From Escherichia coli (GTDB taxonomy: Bacteria > Pseudomonadota > Gammaproteobacteria > Enterobacterales > Enterobacteriaceae), in assembly GCF_009931435.1 (NCBI RefSeq), contig NZ_CP043414.1: 64,000 nt of DNA. One strand, written 5' to 3'. Below are positions 18,957 to 33,448 of the stretch, piece by piece. The notes under the pieces are model-generated. The model was not told the origin of the DNA. It did not search any database and was given only the letters and a program-made list of their open reading frames with translations. The stretch's first letter is position 1, and each line of letters opens with the position of its first letter. The translations under genes were made by a program, and so were the position numbers.

Positions 18957-19496
18957 TCATATTGCCCCCAGCATGGTGGTCACCATCGCCATTAATGGAC
19001 CAGCCAGATCCGGGTCCACACGAAACATCGACACAATACCTTCACTCATTTCCTTCAGTTTCTGGTGGCGTGGTGCGTTGAGAATGACAGCCTGTTTTGC
19101 CTCACTGAGTTCCTTTTCCATTTCAGCCAACCGAGTCATGAAGCTATCCTGCTCAACCAGGTAACCGCGATATTCCAGCGGTAGTACCGCCAGAATTGCC
19201 GGGGTCAGTTCACGCACGTTATTTCGGTATTTTTCAGAATCGAATTTGTTATCGAGGAAGCGGAACAGCTTCTGGCGTGCACGGCTGACATCATCAGGGA
19301 AATCGATGGTGCCGTCGCCCTGCTCCCGATACTCATTCACAATGAGTGCGGCAACGACATCCTGATTATCTACAGCCGACCAGGCGCGGACGGCATCACG
19401 GATTTTTTCGTGGCCTGGAGCTTGTTTTGTTTGAGAACGATTTATCACCGCAGTCGGAATAAATCCGCTAGTCTGTTGGTATGTAAGTGGTTGCAT
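18957..19496 (-). CDS. Early regulatory protein in the cII position (YdaT-like)
   Basis: 179 aa ORF between the cro-like gene and O. Confidence 0.6.
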   Translation of the reverse strand: MQPLTYQQTSGFIPTAVINRSQTKQAPGHEKIRDAVRAWSAVDNQDVVAALIVNEYREQGDGTIDFPDDVSRARQKLFRFLDNKFDSEKYRNNVRELTPAILAVLPLEYRGYLVEQDSFMTRLAEMEKELSEAKQAVILNAPRHQKLKEMSEGIVSMFRVDPDLAGPLMAMVTTMLGAI

Positions 19497-19565
19497 AATT
19501 GACTCCTTTAGTTTGAATTGACTGTTAAGTTGATTGCTTATTGTTAAAGAGCGTGAAATGGAAAT

Positions 19566-19796
19566 TTAAGCTGCGTTCTTTTCGGTGTGTGGAAACAACT
19601 TCGGAAGATCCGGGCGAATCTGGTATGCCTTCACAACTCCACCAGTAGCCGTAACAATGCTGCCGACATGTTCAGGGGATACCTTTGCTTTGTTGTGAAG
19701 CCACTTATAGACGGCCTGCTGTGAAACTTCGCAGGCATCGCCTAGTTTCTTTTGTGAACCAACGATATTGATCGCTGTTTTGATTGCTGGGTTCAT
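19566..19796 (-). CDS. cro: Cro-like HTH regulator (YdaS/Cro family)
   Basis: 76 aa, divergent from the cI gene across the operator region. Confidence 0.7.
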   Translation of the reverse strand: MNPAIKTAINIVGSQKKLGDACEVSQQAVYKWLHNKAKVSPEHVGSIVTATGGVVKAYQIRPDLPKLFPHTEKNAA

Positions 19797-19900
19797 AACA
19801 ACCTCCGTGGTTAATCCGAATCAAGATTAAAACTATGGTTGTTTTTAGTCAACAACCATTTTCGTTTGATGAAATAAAACCTTGGTTGTACATTTGATCT
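19797..19900. promoter_or_regulatory. Immunity-region divergent promoter/operator (OR-like); 9-bp-arm palindrome atggttgtt-N7-aacaaccat at 19835-19859
   Basis: Palindrome and repeated ACAACC/GGTTGT half-sites between divergent cro-like and cI genes. Confidence 0.6.
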
Positions 19901-20590
19901 ATGAAAACAACACTCTCAGAAAGACTTAAAGAAGCCAGATTAGCGCGAGGCCTTACACAAAAGGCGCTTGGGGATTTGGTCGGGGTTAGCCAGGCTGCTA
20001 TTCAGAAAATCGAAACAGGGAAAGCTAACCAAACAACTAAAATCGTGGAGATCGCGAACGCTTTGGGTGTACGCGCAGAATGGTTATCTTCTGGCGTTGG
20101 AAATATGTCAGACAGTACAGTGCAACCAATACAATCAACTGTCAGCCATTCCAAATACTTCAAAATTGACGTTCTTGATATAGAAGTCAGTGCCGGGCCA
20201 GGTGTAATCAACCGTGAGTTTGTAGAAGTTCTACGCTCGGTTGAGTACTCGTTTGACGATGCTCGTCACATGTTCGATGGCAGGAAGGCGGAAAATATCC
20301 GCATCATTAACGTGCGAGGTGACAGCATGTCAGGGACGATCGAACCAGGTGACCTGCTGTTCGTTGATATCACTGTTAAATCTTTCGACGGTGATGGCAT
20401 CTATGCGTTTCTGTACGACGACACTGCCCATGTAAAACGTCTTCAAATGATGAAGGATAAGCTGCTGGTTATCTCTGATAACAAGAGCTACTCGCCGTGG
20501 GACCCGATCGAGAAAGACGAGATGAACCGGGTGTTCATATTCGGTAAGGTCATTGGAAGCATGCCGCAGACGTACAGGAAGCATGGTTAA
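19901..20590 (+). CDS. cI: CI-type prophage repressor (XRE HTH plus S24 LexA-like autopeptidase domain)
   Basis: 229 aa; N-terminal HTH; C-terminal GDSMSGTIEPGDLLFVD peptidase motif. Confidence 0.85.
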   Translation: MKTTLSERLKEARLARGLTQKALGDLVGVSQAAIQKIETGKANQTTKIVEIANALGVRAEWLSSGVGNMSDSTVQPIQSTVSHSKYFKIDVLDIEVSAGPGVINREFVEVLRSVEYSFDDARHMFDGRKAENIRIINVRGDSMSGTIEPGDLLFVDITVKSFDGDGIYAFLYDDTAHVKRLQMMKDKLLVISDNKSYSPWDPIEKDEMNRVFIFGKVIGSMPQTYRKHG

Positions 20591-20819
20591 TTTATCTACG
20601 ACTTAAGGGAGCGAAGGTTAAGGTTTATACCACTCGGATTAGATATTGCACTAAATTCTCTATAAGAACGCCAAATCTGTTTGCATATTTCAGTAAATAT
20701 TCTCGTTGTTAGCTGAGATTTGTTGCTACTGTCAGCAAAATGTCTCCCTATCTCGTAGCGGTTTTTATTTCGAATCATTATGTTAAGATGTTTCTGATTA
20801 TAATGAATGGAAACATAAA

Positions 20820-21200
20820 ATGAGAAAAATCCTAATCGCTGCCATGATGGCATCTGTATTGGCTGGGTGTGCTTCTTCAGGCAACCAGCAACTCAAAAAT
20901 GAAACTGAAATTAGTGTCCAGTCTAAACTTCAGGAAGGTAAAACAACCAAGAATGAGGTTAAATCTTACTTTGGTTCTCCTGATGCTGTTTCATATACTG
21001 ACAGTGGAAAGGAGATCTGGAAGTACGCCTTTGCAAAAGTAAAAGTTAATGGCACCACTTTTATTCCATTCTATGGATTATTCCATAACGGAACGAACGG
21101 TACGAAAAAAGAACTTACTATTCTTTTTAACGATGACACGATTAAGAAATACACAATGTCAGAAACCCAAATAAACTCGAAATCAGGTTGGGCTGACTGA
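20820..21200 (+). CDS. Lipoprotein of unknown function encoded downstream of cI (rexAB position)
   Basis: 126 aa; signal peptide with lipobox LAGC; followed by a terminator. Confidence 0.75.
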   Translation: MRKILIAAMMASVLAGCASSGNQQLKNETEISVQSKLQEGKTTKNEVKSYFGSPDAVSYTDSGKEIWKYAFAKVKVNGTTFIPFYGLFHNGTNGTKKELTILFNDDTIKKYTMSETQINSKSGWAD

Positions 21201-21207
21201 TAATCAT

Positions 21208-21236
21208 ACCCGGCAACCGCGCCGGGTTTTCTTTTC
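21208..21236 (+). terminator. Rho-independent terminator after the cI-lipoprotein unit
   Basis: acccggc / gccgggt stem followed by tttcttttcc. Confidence 0.7.
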
Positions 21237-21350
21237 CTCCCCCTCATAACTCATACCGTCCAAAAAACCACCACACCTCACTTCAGTTATCGCTATGCGA
21301 TGCAAGTCACAAAATAAATCCATCCTAAATACAACCAGTTATATTTAAAA

Positions 21351-21404
21351 CAACCGATAAAACAACTTTTGTTGTTGACGATAAAACAACTATAGTTTTA
21401 AATA
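21351..21404 (+). promoter_or_regulatory. Candidate early-left promoter/operator (pL/OL-like): palindrome aacaac-tttt-gttgtt overlapping a TTGACG -35 element
   Basis: Palindrome 21361-21376; TTGACG at 21375-21380; AT-rich -10 candidates about 17 bp downstream; shares the ACAAC half-site with the OR region. Confidence 0.45.
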
Positions 21405-21596
21405 AATTCATCGCAACGACACAACGATACGGTAACCACCTGTTTCACCGTTGCGATGACCGCTTAGATCCGCAGTTTGAATTTCAGCAGGCTTCGGGGA
21501 GTGCGAGGGGTGAAACGGACGCGTGAACGTCGGTGTGACCAGCTGAAATCAACACAACACTTTATACCTCAGTCGCTTCAACGAGGCGGCTTAGTT

Positions 21597-21887
21597 ATGA
21601 CAACCGGCGGCCATCCACCGCCTGAATACGCGCAGAAGTCTCTATATGTTCAGCAGCCCAGCTTACGGGCAGGAGTTTTTATGGTTCATCAACATTACGG
21701 AACGCAGACCGTTAATCGAGGTGCGGTCATGCCAGGAATGCTGGTCAAACACAAAGATGGTACCTGGACTGCATCAGCTAATTTACGCGGACGGCTTTAT
21801 CTGCATCGCGGCATCGAGCGCACTTATACCCGTGATTTGCTCGTGGAAGTTTTTCTCGACGGACGCGGTAACGGCCTGAATCGCTAA
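21597..21887 (+). CDS. Hypothetical early-left protein (96 aa from ATG with GAGG SD; possible 136-aa form from TTG at 21477)
   Basis: ORF between the pL-like region and gam; the longer form has an arginine-rich N-terminus. Confidence 0.4.
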
Positions 21888-21962
21888 TCCCCTTTCCTGT
21901 TTTCCTAATCAGCCTGGCATTTCGCGGGCGATATTTTCACAGCCATTTTCAGGAGTTCAGCC

Positions 21963-22259
21963 ATGAACGCTTATTACATTCAGGATCGTCTTGAGGCTCA
22001 GAGCTGGGCGCGTTACTACCAGCAGATCGCCCGTGAAGAGAAAGAGGCAGAACTGGCAGACGACATGGAAAAAGGCCTGCCCCAGCACCTGTTTGAATCG
22101 CTATGCATCGATCATTTGCAACGCCACGGGGCCAGCAAAAAAGCCATTACCCGTGCGTTTGATGACGATGTTGAGTTTCAGGAGCGCATGGCAGAACACA
22201 TCCGGTACATGGTTGAAACCATTGCTCACCACCAGGTTGATATTGATTCAGAGGTATAA
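21963..22259 (+). CDS. gam: Gam (RecBCD inhibitor), short GamS-length form
   Basis: 98 aa matches the C-terminal 98 residues of lambda Gam; AGGAG SD; in-frame stop upstream at 21906. Confidence 0.9.
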
Positions 22260-22264
22260 AACGG

Positions 22265-23050
22265 ATGAGTACAGCACTCGCAACGCTGGCAGGGAAGCTG
22301 GCTGAACGTGTCGGCATGGATTCTGTCGACCCACAGGAACTGATCACCACTCTTCGCCAGACGGCATTTAAAGGTGATGCCAGCGATGCGCAGTTCATCG
22401 CATTGCTGATCGTCGCCAACCAGTACGGCCTTAATCCGTGGACGAAAGAAATTTACGCCTTCCCTGATAAGCAGAACGGCATCGTTCCGGTGGTGGGCGT
22501 TGATGGCTGGTCCCGCATCATCAATGAAAACCAGCAGTTTGATGGCATGGACTTTGAGCAGGACAACGAATCCTGTACATGCCGGATTTACCGCAAGGAC
22601 CGTAATCATCCGATCTGCGTTACCGAATGGATGGATGAATGCCGCCGCGAACCATTCAAAACCCGCGAAGGCAGAGAAATCACGGGGCCGTGGCAGTCGC
22701 ATCCCAAACGGATGTTACGGCATAAAGCCATGATTCAGTGTGCCCGTCTGGCCTTCGGATTTGCTGGTATCTATGACAAGGATGAAGCCGAGCGCATTGT
22801 CGAAAATACTGCATACACTGCAGAACGTCAGCCAGAACGCGACATCACTCCGGTTAACGATGAAACCATGCAGGAGATTAACACTCTGCTGATCGCCCTG
22901 GATAAAACATGGGATGACGACTTATTGCCGCTCTGTTCCCAGATATTTCGCCGCGACATTCGCGCATCGTCAGAACTGACACAGGCCGAAGCAGTGAAAG
23001 CTCTTGGATTCCTGAAACAGAAAGCCACTGAGCAGAAGGTGGCAGCATGA
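22265..23050 (+). CDS. bet: Bet (Red-beta single-strand annealing protein)
   Basis: 261 aa, matches lambda Bet. Confidence 0.95.
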
Positions 23051-23727
23051 TACCGGACATTATCCTGCAGCGTACCGGGATCGACGTGAGAGCTGTCGAA
23101 CAGGGGGATGATGCATGGCACAAATTACGGCTCGGCGTCATCACCGCTTCAGAAGTTCACAACGTGATAGCAAAGCCCCGCTCAGGAAAGAAGTGGCCTG
23201 ACATGAAAATGTCCTACTTCCACACCCTGCTGGCTGAGGTTTGCACCGGTGTGGCTCCGGAAGTTAATGCTAAGGCGCTGGCCTGGGGAAAACAGTACGA
23301 GAACGACGCCAGAACCCTGTTTGAATTCACTTCCGGCGTGAATATTACTGAATCCCCGATCATCTATCGCGACGAAAGTATGCGCACCGCCTGCTCTCCC
23401 GATGGTTTATGCAGTGACGGCAACGGCCTTGAACTGAAATGCCCGTTTACCTCCCGGGATTTCATGAAATTCCGGCTCGGTGGTTTCGAGGCAATAAAAT
23501 CGGCTTACATGGCCCAGGTGCAGTACAGCATGTGGGTGACGCGAAAAGATGCCTGGTACTTTGCCAACTATGACCCGCGCATGAAGCGTGAAGGCCTGCA
23601 TTATGTCGTGATTGAGCGGAATGAAAAGTACATGGCGAGTTTTGACGAGATGGTGCCGGAGTTCATCGAAAAAATGGACGAGGCACTGGCTGAAATTGGT
23701 TTTGTATTTGGGGAGCAATGGCGATGA
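23047..23727 (+). CDS. exo: Exo (lambda exonuclease)
   Basis: 226 aa, near-identical to lambda Exo; full length. Confidence 0.95.
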
Positions 23728-23906
23728 CGCATCCTCACGATAATATCCGGGTAGGCGCGATCACTTTCGTCTACTCCGTTACAAAGCGAGGCTGGGTATT
23801 TCCCGGCCTTTCTGTTATCAGAAATCCACTGAAAGCACAGCGGCTGGCTGAGAAGATAAATAATAAACGGGAGGCGGTATGCACAAAGCATCTCCTGTTG
23901 AGTTAA
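23718..23906 (+). CDS. Lambda orf60a-like small protein
   Basis: 62 aa, matches recalled lambda orf60a. Confidence 0.6.
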
Positions 23907-24070
23907 GAACGAGTATTGAGATGGCACATAGCCTTGCTCAAATTGGAGTCAGGTTTGTGCCAATACCAGTAGAAACAGACGAAGAATTTCATACGTTAGC
24001 CACATCCCTTTCACAAAAGCTGGAAATGATGGTGGCGAAAGCAGAAGCAGATGAGAGAGACCAGGTATGA
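23879..24070 (+). CDS. Lambda orf63-like small protein
   Basis: 63 aa, matches recalled lambda orf63. Confidence 0.6.
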   Translation: MHKASPVELRTSIEMAHSLAQIGVRFVPIPVETDEEFHTLATSLSQKLEMMVAKAEADERDQV

Positions 24071-24150
24071 CAACCACTGAATGCATTTTTCTGGCAGCGG
24101 GCTTCATATTCTGTGTGCTTATGCTTGCCGACATGGGGCTTGTTCAATGA
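24067..24150 (+). CDS. Candidate 27-aa hydrophobic peptide (MTTTECIFLAAGFIFCVLMLADMGLVQ), translationally coupled to neighbours
   Basis: ATGA overlaps at both ends (24067 and 24147); not in the ORF track. Confidence 0.35.
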   Translation: MTTTECIFLAAGFIFCVLMLADMGLVQ

Positions 24151-24362
24151 CACCTCAGCAAGAAAACGCCCTTCGCAGCATTGCCCGTCAGGCTAATTCT
24201 GAAATCAAAAAAGCCAGACAGCATTTTCCGGATAAAAACGTCGATGACATTTGCCGTAGCGTACTAAAGAAGCACCGCGAAACGGTAACGCTGATGGGAT
24301 TCACACCGACTCATTTAAGCCTGGCGATCGGCATGTTGAACGGCGTCTTTAAGGAACGGTGA
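24147..24362 (+). CDS. Hypothetical small prophage protein
   Basis: 72 aa from MTPQQENALRSIARQ; the track ORF starts earlier at 24081. Confidence 0.5.
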   Translation: MTPQQENALRSIARQANSEIKKARQHFPDKNVDDICRSVLKKHRETVTLMGFTPTHLSLAIGMLNGVFKER

Positions 24363-24460
24363 ACATGAAAAGCAAAATCATCAGGGAGCTACAGGCTCCT
24401 TTTTTATTATTCGCATTTACCCTCAAGCGTATTAACCAACAATTCAGGGATTAATGAAAG

Positions 24461-24679
24461 ATGGCAGACATCATTGATTCAGCATCAGAAATCGAAGAAT
24501 TACAGCGCAATACAGCAATAAAAATGCGTCGTCTGAACTACCAGACTGTATCCGCAACTCATTGTTGTGAGTGTGGCGATCCGATAGATGAGCGAAGACG
24601 CCTGGCTGTTCAGGGTTGTCGGACTTGTGCGAGTTGCCAGGAGGAGATCGAACTTAAGAACAAACAATGGGGACTGTGA
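24461..24679 (+). CDS. TraR/DksA-family C4 zinc-finger protein
   Basis: 72 aa with CxxC-N17-CxxC (CCECGDP ... CRTCASC). Confidence 0.7.
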   Translation: MADIIDSASEIEELQRNTAIKMRRLNYQTVSATHCCECGDPIDERRRLAVQGCRTCASCQEEIELKNKQWGL

Positions 24680-25005: not shown

Positions 25006-25348
25006 GGCCTGTCAGTTTCTTAAGATATCCAGACCAACCGCCACCAACTGGATACGAACAGGCCGCCTACAGGCAACACGTAAAGATCCAACCAAGCCAA
25101 AATCTCCTTACCTCACAACACGGCAAGCCTGCATTGCGGCGCTTCAGTCTCCGCTGCATACTGTCCAGGTGAGCGCGGGTGATGGCATAACAGAGGAAAG
25201 AAAATGTCACTCTTCCGCAGAAATGAAATATGGTATGCCTCGTATTCGCTCCCGGGCGGGAAACGAATTAAGGAATCTCTTGGCACAAAGGACAAGCGGC
25301 AAGCTCAGGAGTTGCACGACAAGCGAAAAGCAGAACTCTGGCGAGTAG
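24977..25348 (+). CDS. xis: Putative excisionase; 3' end uncertain, ORF overlaps the int start
   Basis: ORF directly upstream of int with HTH-like N-terminus ([26 protein letters not shown]); possibly a pseudogene as in K-12 xisD. Confidence 0.45.
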
Positions 25349-26367
25349 AAAAGCTAGGGGATTTACCTGATGTCACTTTTGAAGAGGCCTGCCTAAGATG
25401 GCTTGAGGAAAAAGCTGATAAAAAATCTCTCGATTCAGATAAAAGCCGGATTGAGTTCTGGCTTGAACATTTTGAGGGTATAAGGCTTAAAGATATCTCG
25501 GAGGCAAAGATTTACTCTGCTGTAAGCAGAATGCATAACAGAAAGACGAAAGAAATATGGAAACAGAAAGTTCAGGCCGCCATCAGGAAAGGTAAAGAAC
25601 TGCCTGTTTATGAACCAAAGCCAGTATCAACTCAGACAAAGGCAAAGCATCTTGCCATGATAAAGGCCATTCTCCGTGCTGCAGAACGCGACTGGAAGTG
25701 GCTGGAAAAAGCGCCTGTCATCAAGATACCAGCGGTCAGAAACAAGCGAGTCAGATGGCTGGAAAAGGAGGAAGCAAAACGCCTTATTGATGAGTGCCCC
25801 GAACCACTGAAATCTGTCGTCAAGTTTGCGCTGGCAACTGGTCTGAGAAAGTCGAACATCATAAATCTGGAATGGCAACAAATCGACATGCAGCGACGAG
25901 TTGCCTGGGTGAATCCAGAAGAGAGCAAATCAAACCGCGCCATTGGTGTGGCGCTGAACGATACCGCCTGTAAAGTGTTGCGTGATCAAATAGGCAAGCA
26001 TCACAAATGGGTGTTTGTACATACCAAGGCGGCTAAGCGAGCAGATGGAACATCAACGCCTGCGGTCAGGAAGATGCGCATCGACAGCAAGACATCATGG
26101 CTATCAGCTTGTCGTCGTGCAGGAATTGAAGATTTCCGTTTCCATGACCTCAGACACACCTGGGCAAGCTGGCTGATTCAGTCAGGCGTCCCATTATCAG
26201 TGCTTCAGGAAATGGGCGGATGGGAGTCCATAGAAATGGTTCGTAGGTATGCTCACCTTGCGCCTAATCATTTGACAGAGCATGCGAGGAAAATAGACGA
26301 CATTTTTGGTGATAATGTCCCAAATATGTCCCACTCTGAAATTATGGAGGATATAAAGAAGGCGTAA
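25204..26367 (+). CDS. intD: Tyrosine integrase (DLP12 IntD-type)
   Basis: 387 aa; C-terminal R...HxxR...Y catalytic region; adjacent to tRNA-Arg. Confidence 0.95.
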
Positions 26368-26382
26368 CTGATTGAATTGTAA

Positions 26383-26459
26383 TGGCGCGCCCTGCAGGAT
26401 TCGAACCTGCGGCCCACGACTTAGAAGGTCGTTGCTCTATCCAACTGAGCTAAGGGCGC
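26383..26459 (-). tRNA. argU: tRNA-Arg (anticodon UCU), argU; phage attachment site at its 3' end
   Basis: 77-nt reverse complement gives acceptor stem GCGCCCU/AGGGCGC, anticodon loop CUUCUAA, T-arm GGTTCGAATCC, 3' CCA. Confidence 0.95.
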
Positions 26460-32434: not shown

Positions 32435-32977
32435 TTATTCGTATCTCATAATAAAAGTCGCGTCAGCATTTGCTTGCCCTGCTGATGCACTTGTACCGGT
32501 GCCTTTATAACGCGCAGAAAAATGAAGAACGTTGGTCCCGGGGATCAAGTTCTGGTTGGTTGAGAAGCTATTCCCATCAGGTTTGAGAATTGCGGATGTA
32601 TTATCAAGTATTTCAATACCGACACCCGTTGCTGTTGTTGTATTGGTACTGGATGCAATGGCCAATAAATTATCATTGATTGCATCCGCCTGACCAGAAA
32701 ATGCAACGGCAGCATTAGCGGCAACAACAGGATCGCAGTCGTTCAACTGTATAGTGAATGGAATTAATGCAGAGGTATTACCAACAGCATTGAAAATATC
32801 GGTACGATATTGACCGAGTGTGACAACCTGGTCTGCCGAGTCAGTATTCACTGAACAGGCAGCATTCACCAGTTCGCCTTCAAAGTGAATTGTACCGCCA
32901 TCTACAACGGCAGCATAACTACCCGTAGCGGCGAATAGTGCGGCAGCCAGCGCAGACGAAATAAATCTTAATTTCAT
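32435..32977 (-). CDS. sfmA: Type 1-like fimbrial major subunit SfmA
   Basis: 180 aa from [22 protein letters not shown]. Confidence 0.85.
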
Positions 32978-33448
32978 ATATATTCCTTCAATCTCATTTA
33001 TCGACTCCACATCCGTATATAACCGATTACTTTATTTAAGACACTGATAGTAGTAAAATTCCTTTTTATCCTCTAAGAATGTCTTAATTGAAAATATGCA
33101 CTCTATTCTAAAAAATAGAGAGCCCCGTTAGATGAATATTCCCGCGCAAAATATATTCAACACAAATATAGACCTGAAGCGGTAAATTACCAGGCTGAAA
33201 ATTCTTTTTATATTGTCAGGTATTTCTTAAATTATCTTAATCCTTAGACAAGGAAATAAATCAGTTCCAGATTTACAACGTCATCATGGACGAAAAATGA
33301 AGCTTTCAATCTCAGCGACGGTGCGCCTCACCTTCACAAGAGGTCGCTTCACGCGATAAATCTGAAACGAAAACTGACAGCGCGCCCCGCTTCTGACAAA
33401 ATAGGCGCATCCCCTTCGACCTACGTAACAGATGGAATCCTCTCTCTG

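Follow-up and report, generated by a model that had tools for sequence, protein, structure and literature searches.

The gam gene of a lambdoid prophage in Escherichia coli encodes the 98-residue GamS-length protein as its sole canonical product

In phage lambda, the ATG of the short Gam protein (GamS) is internal to a 138-aa open reading frame (ORF) that encodes a longer form (GamL). The E. coli DNA analysed here (the window, 64,000 nucleotides of contig NZ_CP043414.1, assembly GCF_009931435.1) carries a gam gene in which the same ATG is the sole start. The question raised by this locus is whether the gene is intact and simply short, whether a longer gene is hidden by a sequencing error or by unusual translation, or whether it is the remnant of a longer ancestor. 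The evidence favours the first reading, to which we assign a probability of about 95%: gam is a normal, intact lambdoid prophage gene, started at ATG 21963 to give the counterpart of the 98-residue lambda GamS, and GamL is not made.

The gam gene and its prophage neighbourhood

The following features define the locus and its surroundings.

21681–21887, + strand: kil-like cell-division inhibitor gene (phrog_294 Kil; RefSeq equivalent of 68 aa)
21906–21908, + strand: TAA in the gam frame; the same bases in lambda are part of ..CTA ATC.. (L I)
21951–21955, + strand: Shine-Dalgarno (SD) motif AGGAG, 7 nt 5' of the gam ATG
21963–22259, + strand: gam, GamS-length RecBCD inhibitor of 98 aa (ORF, Pfam match and identity to PDB chains)
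22265–23050, + strand: bet, RecT-family annealase (PF03837, E 2.7e-33), beginning 5 nt past the gam stop
23047–23727, + strand: exo, YqaJ-type exonuclease (PF09588, E 2.6e-29)
25204–26367, + strand: prophage integrase gene, abutting tRNA-Arg(tct)
26383–26459, − strand: tRNA-Arg(tct), adjoining the integrase gene

A sequence-only reading of this DNA had proposed that gam is encoded only in the short form, that its frame is closed upstream by a stop at 21906 and that the 98-aa form has an AGGAG SD. All three points held. The ORF translation gives ATG 21963 as the first start codon past the in-frame TAA, a script scan of the gam frame from 21909 to 21962 found no ATG, GTG or TTG, and the SD is strong and well spaced. 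The 98-aa protein is thus supported as the sole product of canonical initiation at gam. The protein is complete by every comparison made: its residues 1–98 match positions 1–98 of the 98-position Pfam profile PF06064 (Gam) with 214.2 bits (curated cut-off 25; E 2.3e-64), phrog_259 is matched over the full length (E 6.9e-60), and 94 of the 98 residues are identical to those of the GamS chains 5MBV_A and 2UUZ_A (E 1.4e-60). The likeness to lambda GamS (PDB 2UUZ, 2UV1, 5MBV) extends to the SD and ATG and to the position before bet-exo. The four substitutions with respect to the PDB protein are Y18 for H, I22 for L, L39 for I and A61 for S.

The order of the early-left operon is kil-like gene, gam, bet, exo, with gam directly 5' of bet-exo. 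The window contains a lambdoid prophage inserted at a tRNA-Arg site, since the integrase gene abuts tRNA-Arg(tct); this junction marks the attachment site and the boundary between prophage and host. The kil-like gene is preceded by a lipoprotein gene and a cI-type repressor gene. The lipoprotein (126 aa, region 20820–21227), which lies between cI and the putative pL, the position of rexAB in lambda, belongs to phrog_3135 and has a weak BamE-domain match below the Pfam cut-off. A strong intrinsic-terminator hairpin (21208–21227) is present 3' of its gene, which is probably a moron expressed in the lysogen.

In the early-left control region between the repressor and the kil-like gene (21230–21520), an N-like gene is absent. 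Direct repeats CGATAAAACAAC (21355 and 21379) and palindromes flank a promoter-like site, TTGACG..TTAAAT. A perfect 11-bp inverted repeat (21408–21418 and 21449–21459, arms 30 nt apart; z −2.33 for the RNA fold) follows, and homology with phages of other immunity (Perceval, 4A7, Lambda_4C10) starts at about 21410, at this repeat. Given this homology edge, the leader therefore appears to travel with the kil-like gene and gam. The region might contain a put-like element for antitermination or processing, although it has no Rfam match. An identity with the put sites of HK022 was considered for the hairpin 21408–21459 and rejected, as no DNA similarity to HK022 was found.

The extent of the kil-like gene is annotated in different ways. 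The mechanical ORF extends back to 21477 and the PhiR26_1 annotation covers 21510–21887 (125 aa), while the phrog_294 Kil match (E 2.3e-38) covers only aa 49–124 of this 125-aa ORF, that is, its C-terminal 76 residues. The RefSeq equivalent is a 207-nt gene for a 68-aa 'phage encoded cell division inhibitor protein'. Labels in public records vary accordingly: 125 aa 'Kil', 139 aa (420 nt) in Perceval, 'membrane carboxypeptidase', 'hypothetical', and the 68-aa RefSeq form. The best-supported start is ATG 21681, behind AGGAG 21670–21674, giving 68 aa. The gene is annotated in Perceval as 'phi80 Kil homolog', and its alignment with lambda kil shows the two to be non-homologous.

The same arrangement is present in known phages. 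PhiR26_1, Turner, 4A7, Lambda_4C10 and Perceval, with a Bievrevirus-like early-left region, carry the same block of kil-like gene, 98-aa gam, bet and exo at 96.6–99.4% DNA identity. PhiR26_1 is 99.4% identical over 21400–22300 and has cI, lipoprotein, Kil, Gam (98 aa), Bet and Exo in the same order as the window; the Kil-Gam-Bet block of Perceval is also the same. At the gam locus there is essentially no difference between these phages and the window, whereas the immunity regions differ among the phages.

The kil-gam spacer and the loss of the long form

The region was aligned with lambda, 933W, Stx2-converting phage 86 (Stx2-86) and PhiR26_1. Four further features are required to follow the comparison.

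21885–21887, + strand: TAA stop of the kil-like gene, left edge of the lambda/933W homology, aligned with the lambda kil stop codon
21888–21962, + strand: kil-gam spacer of 75 nt, homologous to lambda GamL codons 16–40 by alignment, non-coding here
21912–21929, + strand: weak terminator-like hairpin of 5 pairs followed by GATATTTTCA (hairpin scan)
21944–21949, + strand: polymorphic site CATTTT (lambda TA-TTT), the additional T putting the upstream sequence out of frame with gamS

The spacer differs from lambda by only 3 substitutions and 1 indel. The indel is the extra base of a T-run, TTTT at 21946–21949 in the window against TTT in lambda, in the context AGCCATTTTCAGG against AGCTA-TTTCAGG. 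Because of this 1-nt indel, the lambda bases ..CTA ATC.. are read out of frame and become the TAA at 21906, and the remnant of the lambda extension lies in another frame. The earlier suggestion that the frame upstream of gam still resembles the lambda extension is right, with a refinement. The resemblance is true homology and not chance, but in the gam frame only FRSSA (21948–21962) is colinear with the extension, the remaining homology being in the frame of 21875.

The second difference lies further upstream. In lambda, kil (33187–33330) and gam (32816–33232) overlap, so that the GamL ATG is 46 nt inside kil. In the window, homology with lambda and the Stx phages starts at about 21884/21885 (the Stx-phage matches from 21884), and non-homologous DNA stands in place of the part of kil in which the GamL ATG lies. 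The GamL ATG is missing because the lambda homology begins only at the kil-like stop codon. Moreover, the lambda-extension frame contains no start codon and is closed by TAA 21869–21871.

A dual-isoform gam of the lambda type, producing GamL (138 aa) and GamS (98 aa) by alternative initiation, has an in-frame ATG 120 nt 5' of the GamS ATG, within a lambda-type kil, and a frame that is open through the kil-gam spacer (TTT allele). The window lacks the upstream ATG, and the frame through its spacer is broken (TTTT 21946–21949, TAA 21906). Judged from the sequence, two independent causes, the TTTT allele and the replacement of the kil segment, would each bar the 138-residue GamL, and undoing one of these differences alone would not restore it. 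This cause, an indel together with a module replacement at the kil stop codon, goes beyond the sequence-only reading. The Stx phages 933W and Stx2-86 share the TTTT allele with the window and have gam annotated as 98 aa but, unlike the window with its other kil-like gene, they retain the lambda-type cIII/kil and the GamL ATG, which now opens an orphan 50-aa ORF (annotated 'gam alternate' in Stx2-86). The alignment with these phages and PhiR26_1, which had been recommended as a check, thus confirmed that only the 98-aa form is encoded and that the lambda extension is broken.

A longer Gam could still be produced by non-canonical initiation or by ribosomal frameshifting at the T-run. The near-cognate codons found in frame upstream of the gam ATG are two ATT (21933 and 21945), which might serve as starts but have no preceding SD, and the slippery-looking TTTT lies just 5' of the gam SD, but the alternative frame lacks a start codon in the window and hence offers nothing to shift from. 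In loci of the 933W type, the 0-frame codon after TTT would be CAG, which is neither rare nor a stop. Besides, what the family conserves is the strong SD with its ATG. We consider a longer product of this kind to be exceedingly improbable, and retain the 98-aa protein started at ATG 21963.

The spacer itself shows little sign of another function. A functional RNA in its 75 nt was considered and rejected, since the fold z-score (−0.77) indicates no significant structure, and no Rfam match at E ≤ 1 was found over 19000–24500. In the scanned region, 4 terminator-like hairpins were present against 2.0 ± 1.3 expected, so the hairpin at 21912–21929 is not above chance. Part of the lambda tL2 terminator cluster presumably falls in the area of the kil-gam spacer.

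Distribution of the alleles and the conserved unit of the family

The difference from lambda is one T in a T-run, a typical site of error, and the frame break could accordingly be a homopolymer error of sequencing or assembly in what is really a GamL-type gene of 138 aa. The two alleles were counted with allele-specific 44/45-mers that have no 28-mer in common and hence give no cross-hits in megablast. The TTTT allele was found in 2,589 of 5,426 complete E. coli genomes and the lambda TTT allele in 900; among GenBank phage records the numbers were 90 and 90, lambda laboratory derivatives being included in the TTT set. The TTTT allele is moreover accompanied by a linked C/T substitution two bases 5' of it, and it occurs at 84 IMG/VR loci among the matches listed. 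Restoring the lambda frame would still leave the long form without a start, given TAA 21869–21871 and the non-homologous DNA in place of the lambda ATG region. An in-frame start that might appear after sequence correction, the finding that would have changed the picture, was looked for and is absent. The population counts and the missing ATG rule out a sequencing error, whose probability is practically nil.

With the frame break taken as real, the IMG/VR loci show how the two differences are combined. They were collected with the conserved SD-ATG 30-mer as the query (at least 120 loci). Among the 120 matches listed, 87 lack any upstream start in frame and about 31 carry the ORF of 138 aa. By allele and kil type, the matches listed comprise 62 loci with TTTT and the kil-like gene (the window itself counted), 22 with TTTT and lambda kil, 32 with TTT and lambda kil, and 4 with TTT and the kil-like gene.

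Protein records agree with this distribution. The exact Gam protein of the window is present on at least 1,000 contigs under the name 'host-nuclease inhibitor Gam family protein', and nearly all Gam protein clusters in the protein database are of 97–99 aa, those of 138 aa being restricted to a few small clusters. One RefSeq prophage with the TTT allele, in which the long ORF is expected to be open, is annotated by the NCBI pipeline with a Gam of 98 aa, and a RefSeq prophage with TTTT and the kil-like gene has the same layout as the window, with the 68-aa 'phage encoded cell division inhibitor' upstream. Therefore, a gam that encodes 98 residues only is the usual, already annotated state, common beyond what the sequence-only reading had noticed, and the longer form of lambda is in the minority; the organisation of gam in the window is routine and already known. 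In the literature searched, to which the primary GamS/GamL papers do not belong, no published statement that other lambdoid phages encode GamS only was found.

Kil-Gam fusion ORFs of 171 aa (Pfam Lambda_Kil and Gam; clusters P0002, P0009 and P0010) occur on a few public contigs. In P0002, kil reads through into the GamL extension, presumably via a frameshift in the kil/GamL overlap. These fusions may be sequencing errors or rare variants.

The short gene could also be seen as a degenerate remnant, long Gam being ancestral and part of a functional N-terminal domain having been lost. The spacer is still recognisably like the lambda extension, in another frame, and GamL is active when expressed, as GamS alone is in vivo (PMC5218532). 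In disc assays with Klebsiella pneumoniae, the effect of GamL equalled or exceeded that of GamS in some strains (PMC5218532), and the long form may therefore have a function in lambda. However, the Pfam model has 98 positions, nearly all family members are of 97–99 aa, and what distant homologues conserve is the short form's SD and ATG, with nothing upstream. The breakpoint of homology coincides precisely with the kil stop codon, which is where it should fall if the gene units are kil and gamS with an intergenic spacer between them. Phages arranged in this way are also known to form plaques (PhiR26_1, Perceval, 933W). A degenerate origin is thus very improbable, and an intact short gene is preferred.

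The distant loci include a Salmonella type, whose Gam is 73% identical, and a type from E. coli in which gam (82% protein identity) is preceded by a RecE-like gene. In the Salmonella loci the SD region TTCAGGAGTTCAGCCATGAACGC is kept exactly, whereas the DNA 5' of it bears no relation to the lambda extension; in the RecE-type locus only the 98-aa start is retained. The gene upstream of gam varies among distant loci (Lambda_Kil, KilR or the RecE-like Exonuc_VIII). Since these loci keep the 98-aa protein and its SD but not the upstream sequence, protein and SD together would be the conserved translational unit of the family.

The GamL extension consists of the kil-gam spacer and 15 codons inside kil, and it is open in one allele combination only. 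It is an accident of the reading frame in phages with TTT and lambda-type kil, reading through the spacer between kil and gam. The sequence 5' of the lambda GamL ATG, TTATAAAAA, is without an SD-like motif. In loci having the extension, GamL codons 16–40 show 4 synonymous and 6 nonsynonymous changes against 24% synonymous expected, a ratio based on few sites; in gamS, 47 synonymous and 54 nonsynonymous changes against 20% expected are a clear synonymous excess. It could be proposed that the T-run polymorphism and the kil type form a natural on/off switch for GamL, both states being maintained in lambdoid populations because the 40-residue extension alters the interaction of Gam with RecBCD or with defence systems that sense Gam or are blocked by it. 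About one in four loci among the IMG/VR matches listed is able to make GamL, and all four allele combinations are present; nevertheless, we regard such a switch as very unlikely, as nothing in the data supports it.

Predicted function and meaning for the Gam family

The lambda GamS dimer mimics a DNA end and blocks the DNA site of RecBCD, occupying the duplex-binding arm of RecB, and one of its N-terminal helices enters the RecB channel for 3' single-stranded DNA, so that all RecBCD activities are blocked (PMC5218532). The Gam of the window is 96% identical to the one in the cryo-EM complex, and on this basis it would likewise be expected to be expressed, to dimerise, to bind RecBCD and to block the binding of DNA ends. 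After induction, an early-left transcript would allow Gam to be translated from ATG 21963 behind AGGAG; the dimer, mimicking a DNA end as in lambda, would block RecBCD; and linear and rolling-circle phage DNA would be protected, making Bet/Exo (Red) recombination and rolling-circle replication possible. Other anti-RecBCD proteins, namely phi80 'GamL', P22 Abc2 and Mu Gam, have RecBCD or DNA ends as their functional target, the 'GamL' of that report being the phi80 protein and not the long lambda isoform (PMC12315714). All three are unrelated in sequence to the Gam of the window.

These results correct an expectation centred on lambda: what is conserved in Gam is the 98-aa protein, and the lambda ORF of 138 aa reflects a combination of alleles that is in the minority. 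For annotation, Gam should be called at the ATG preceded by the SD. Natural plaque-forming phages do with GamS alone.
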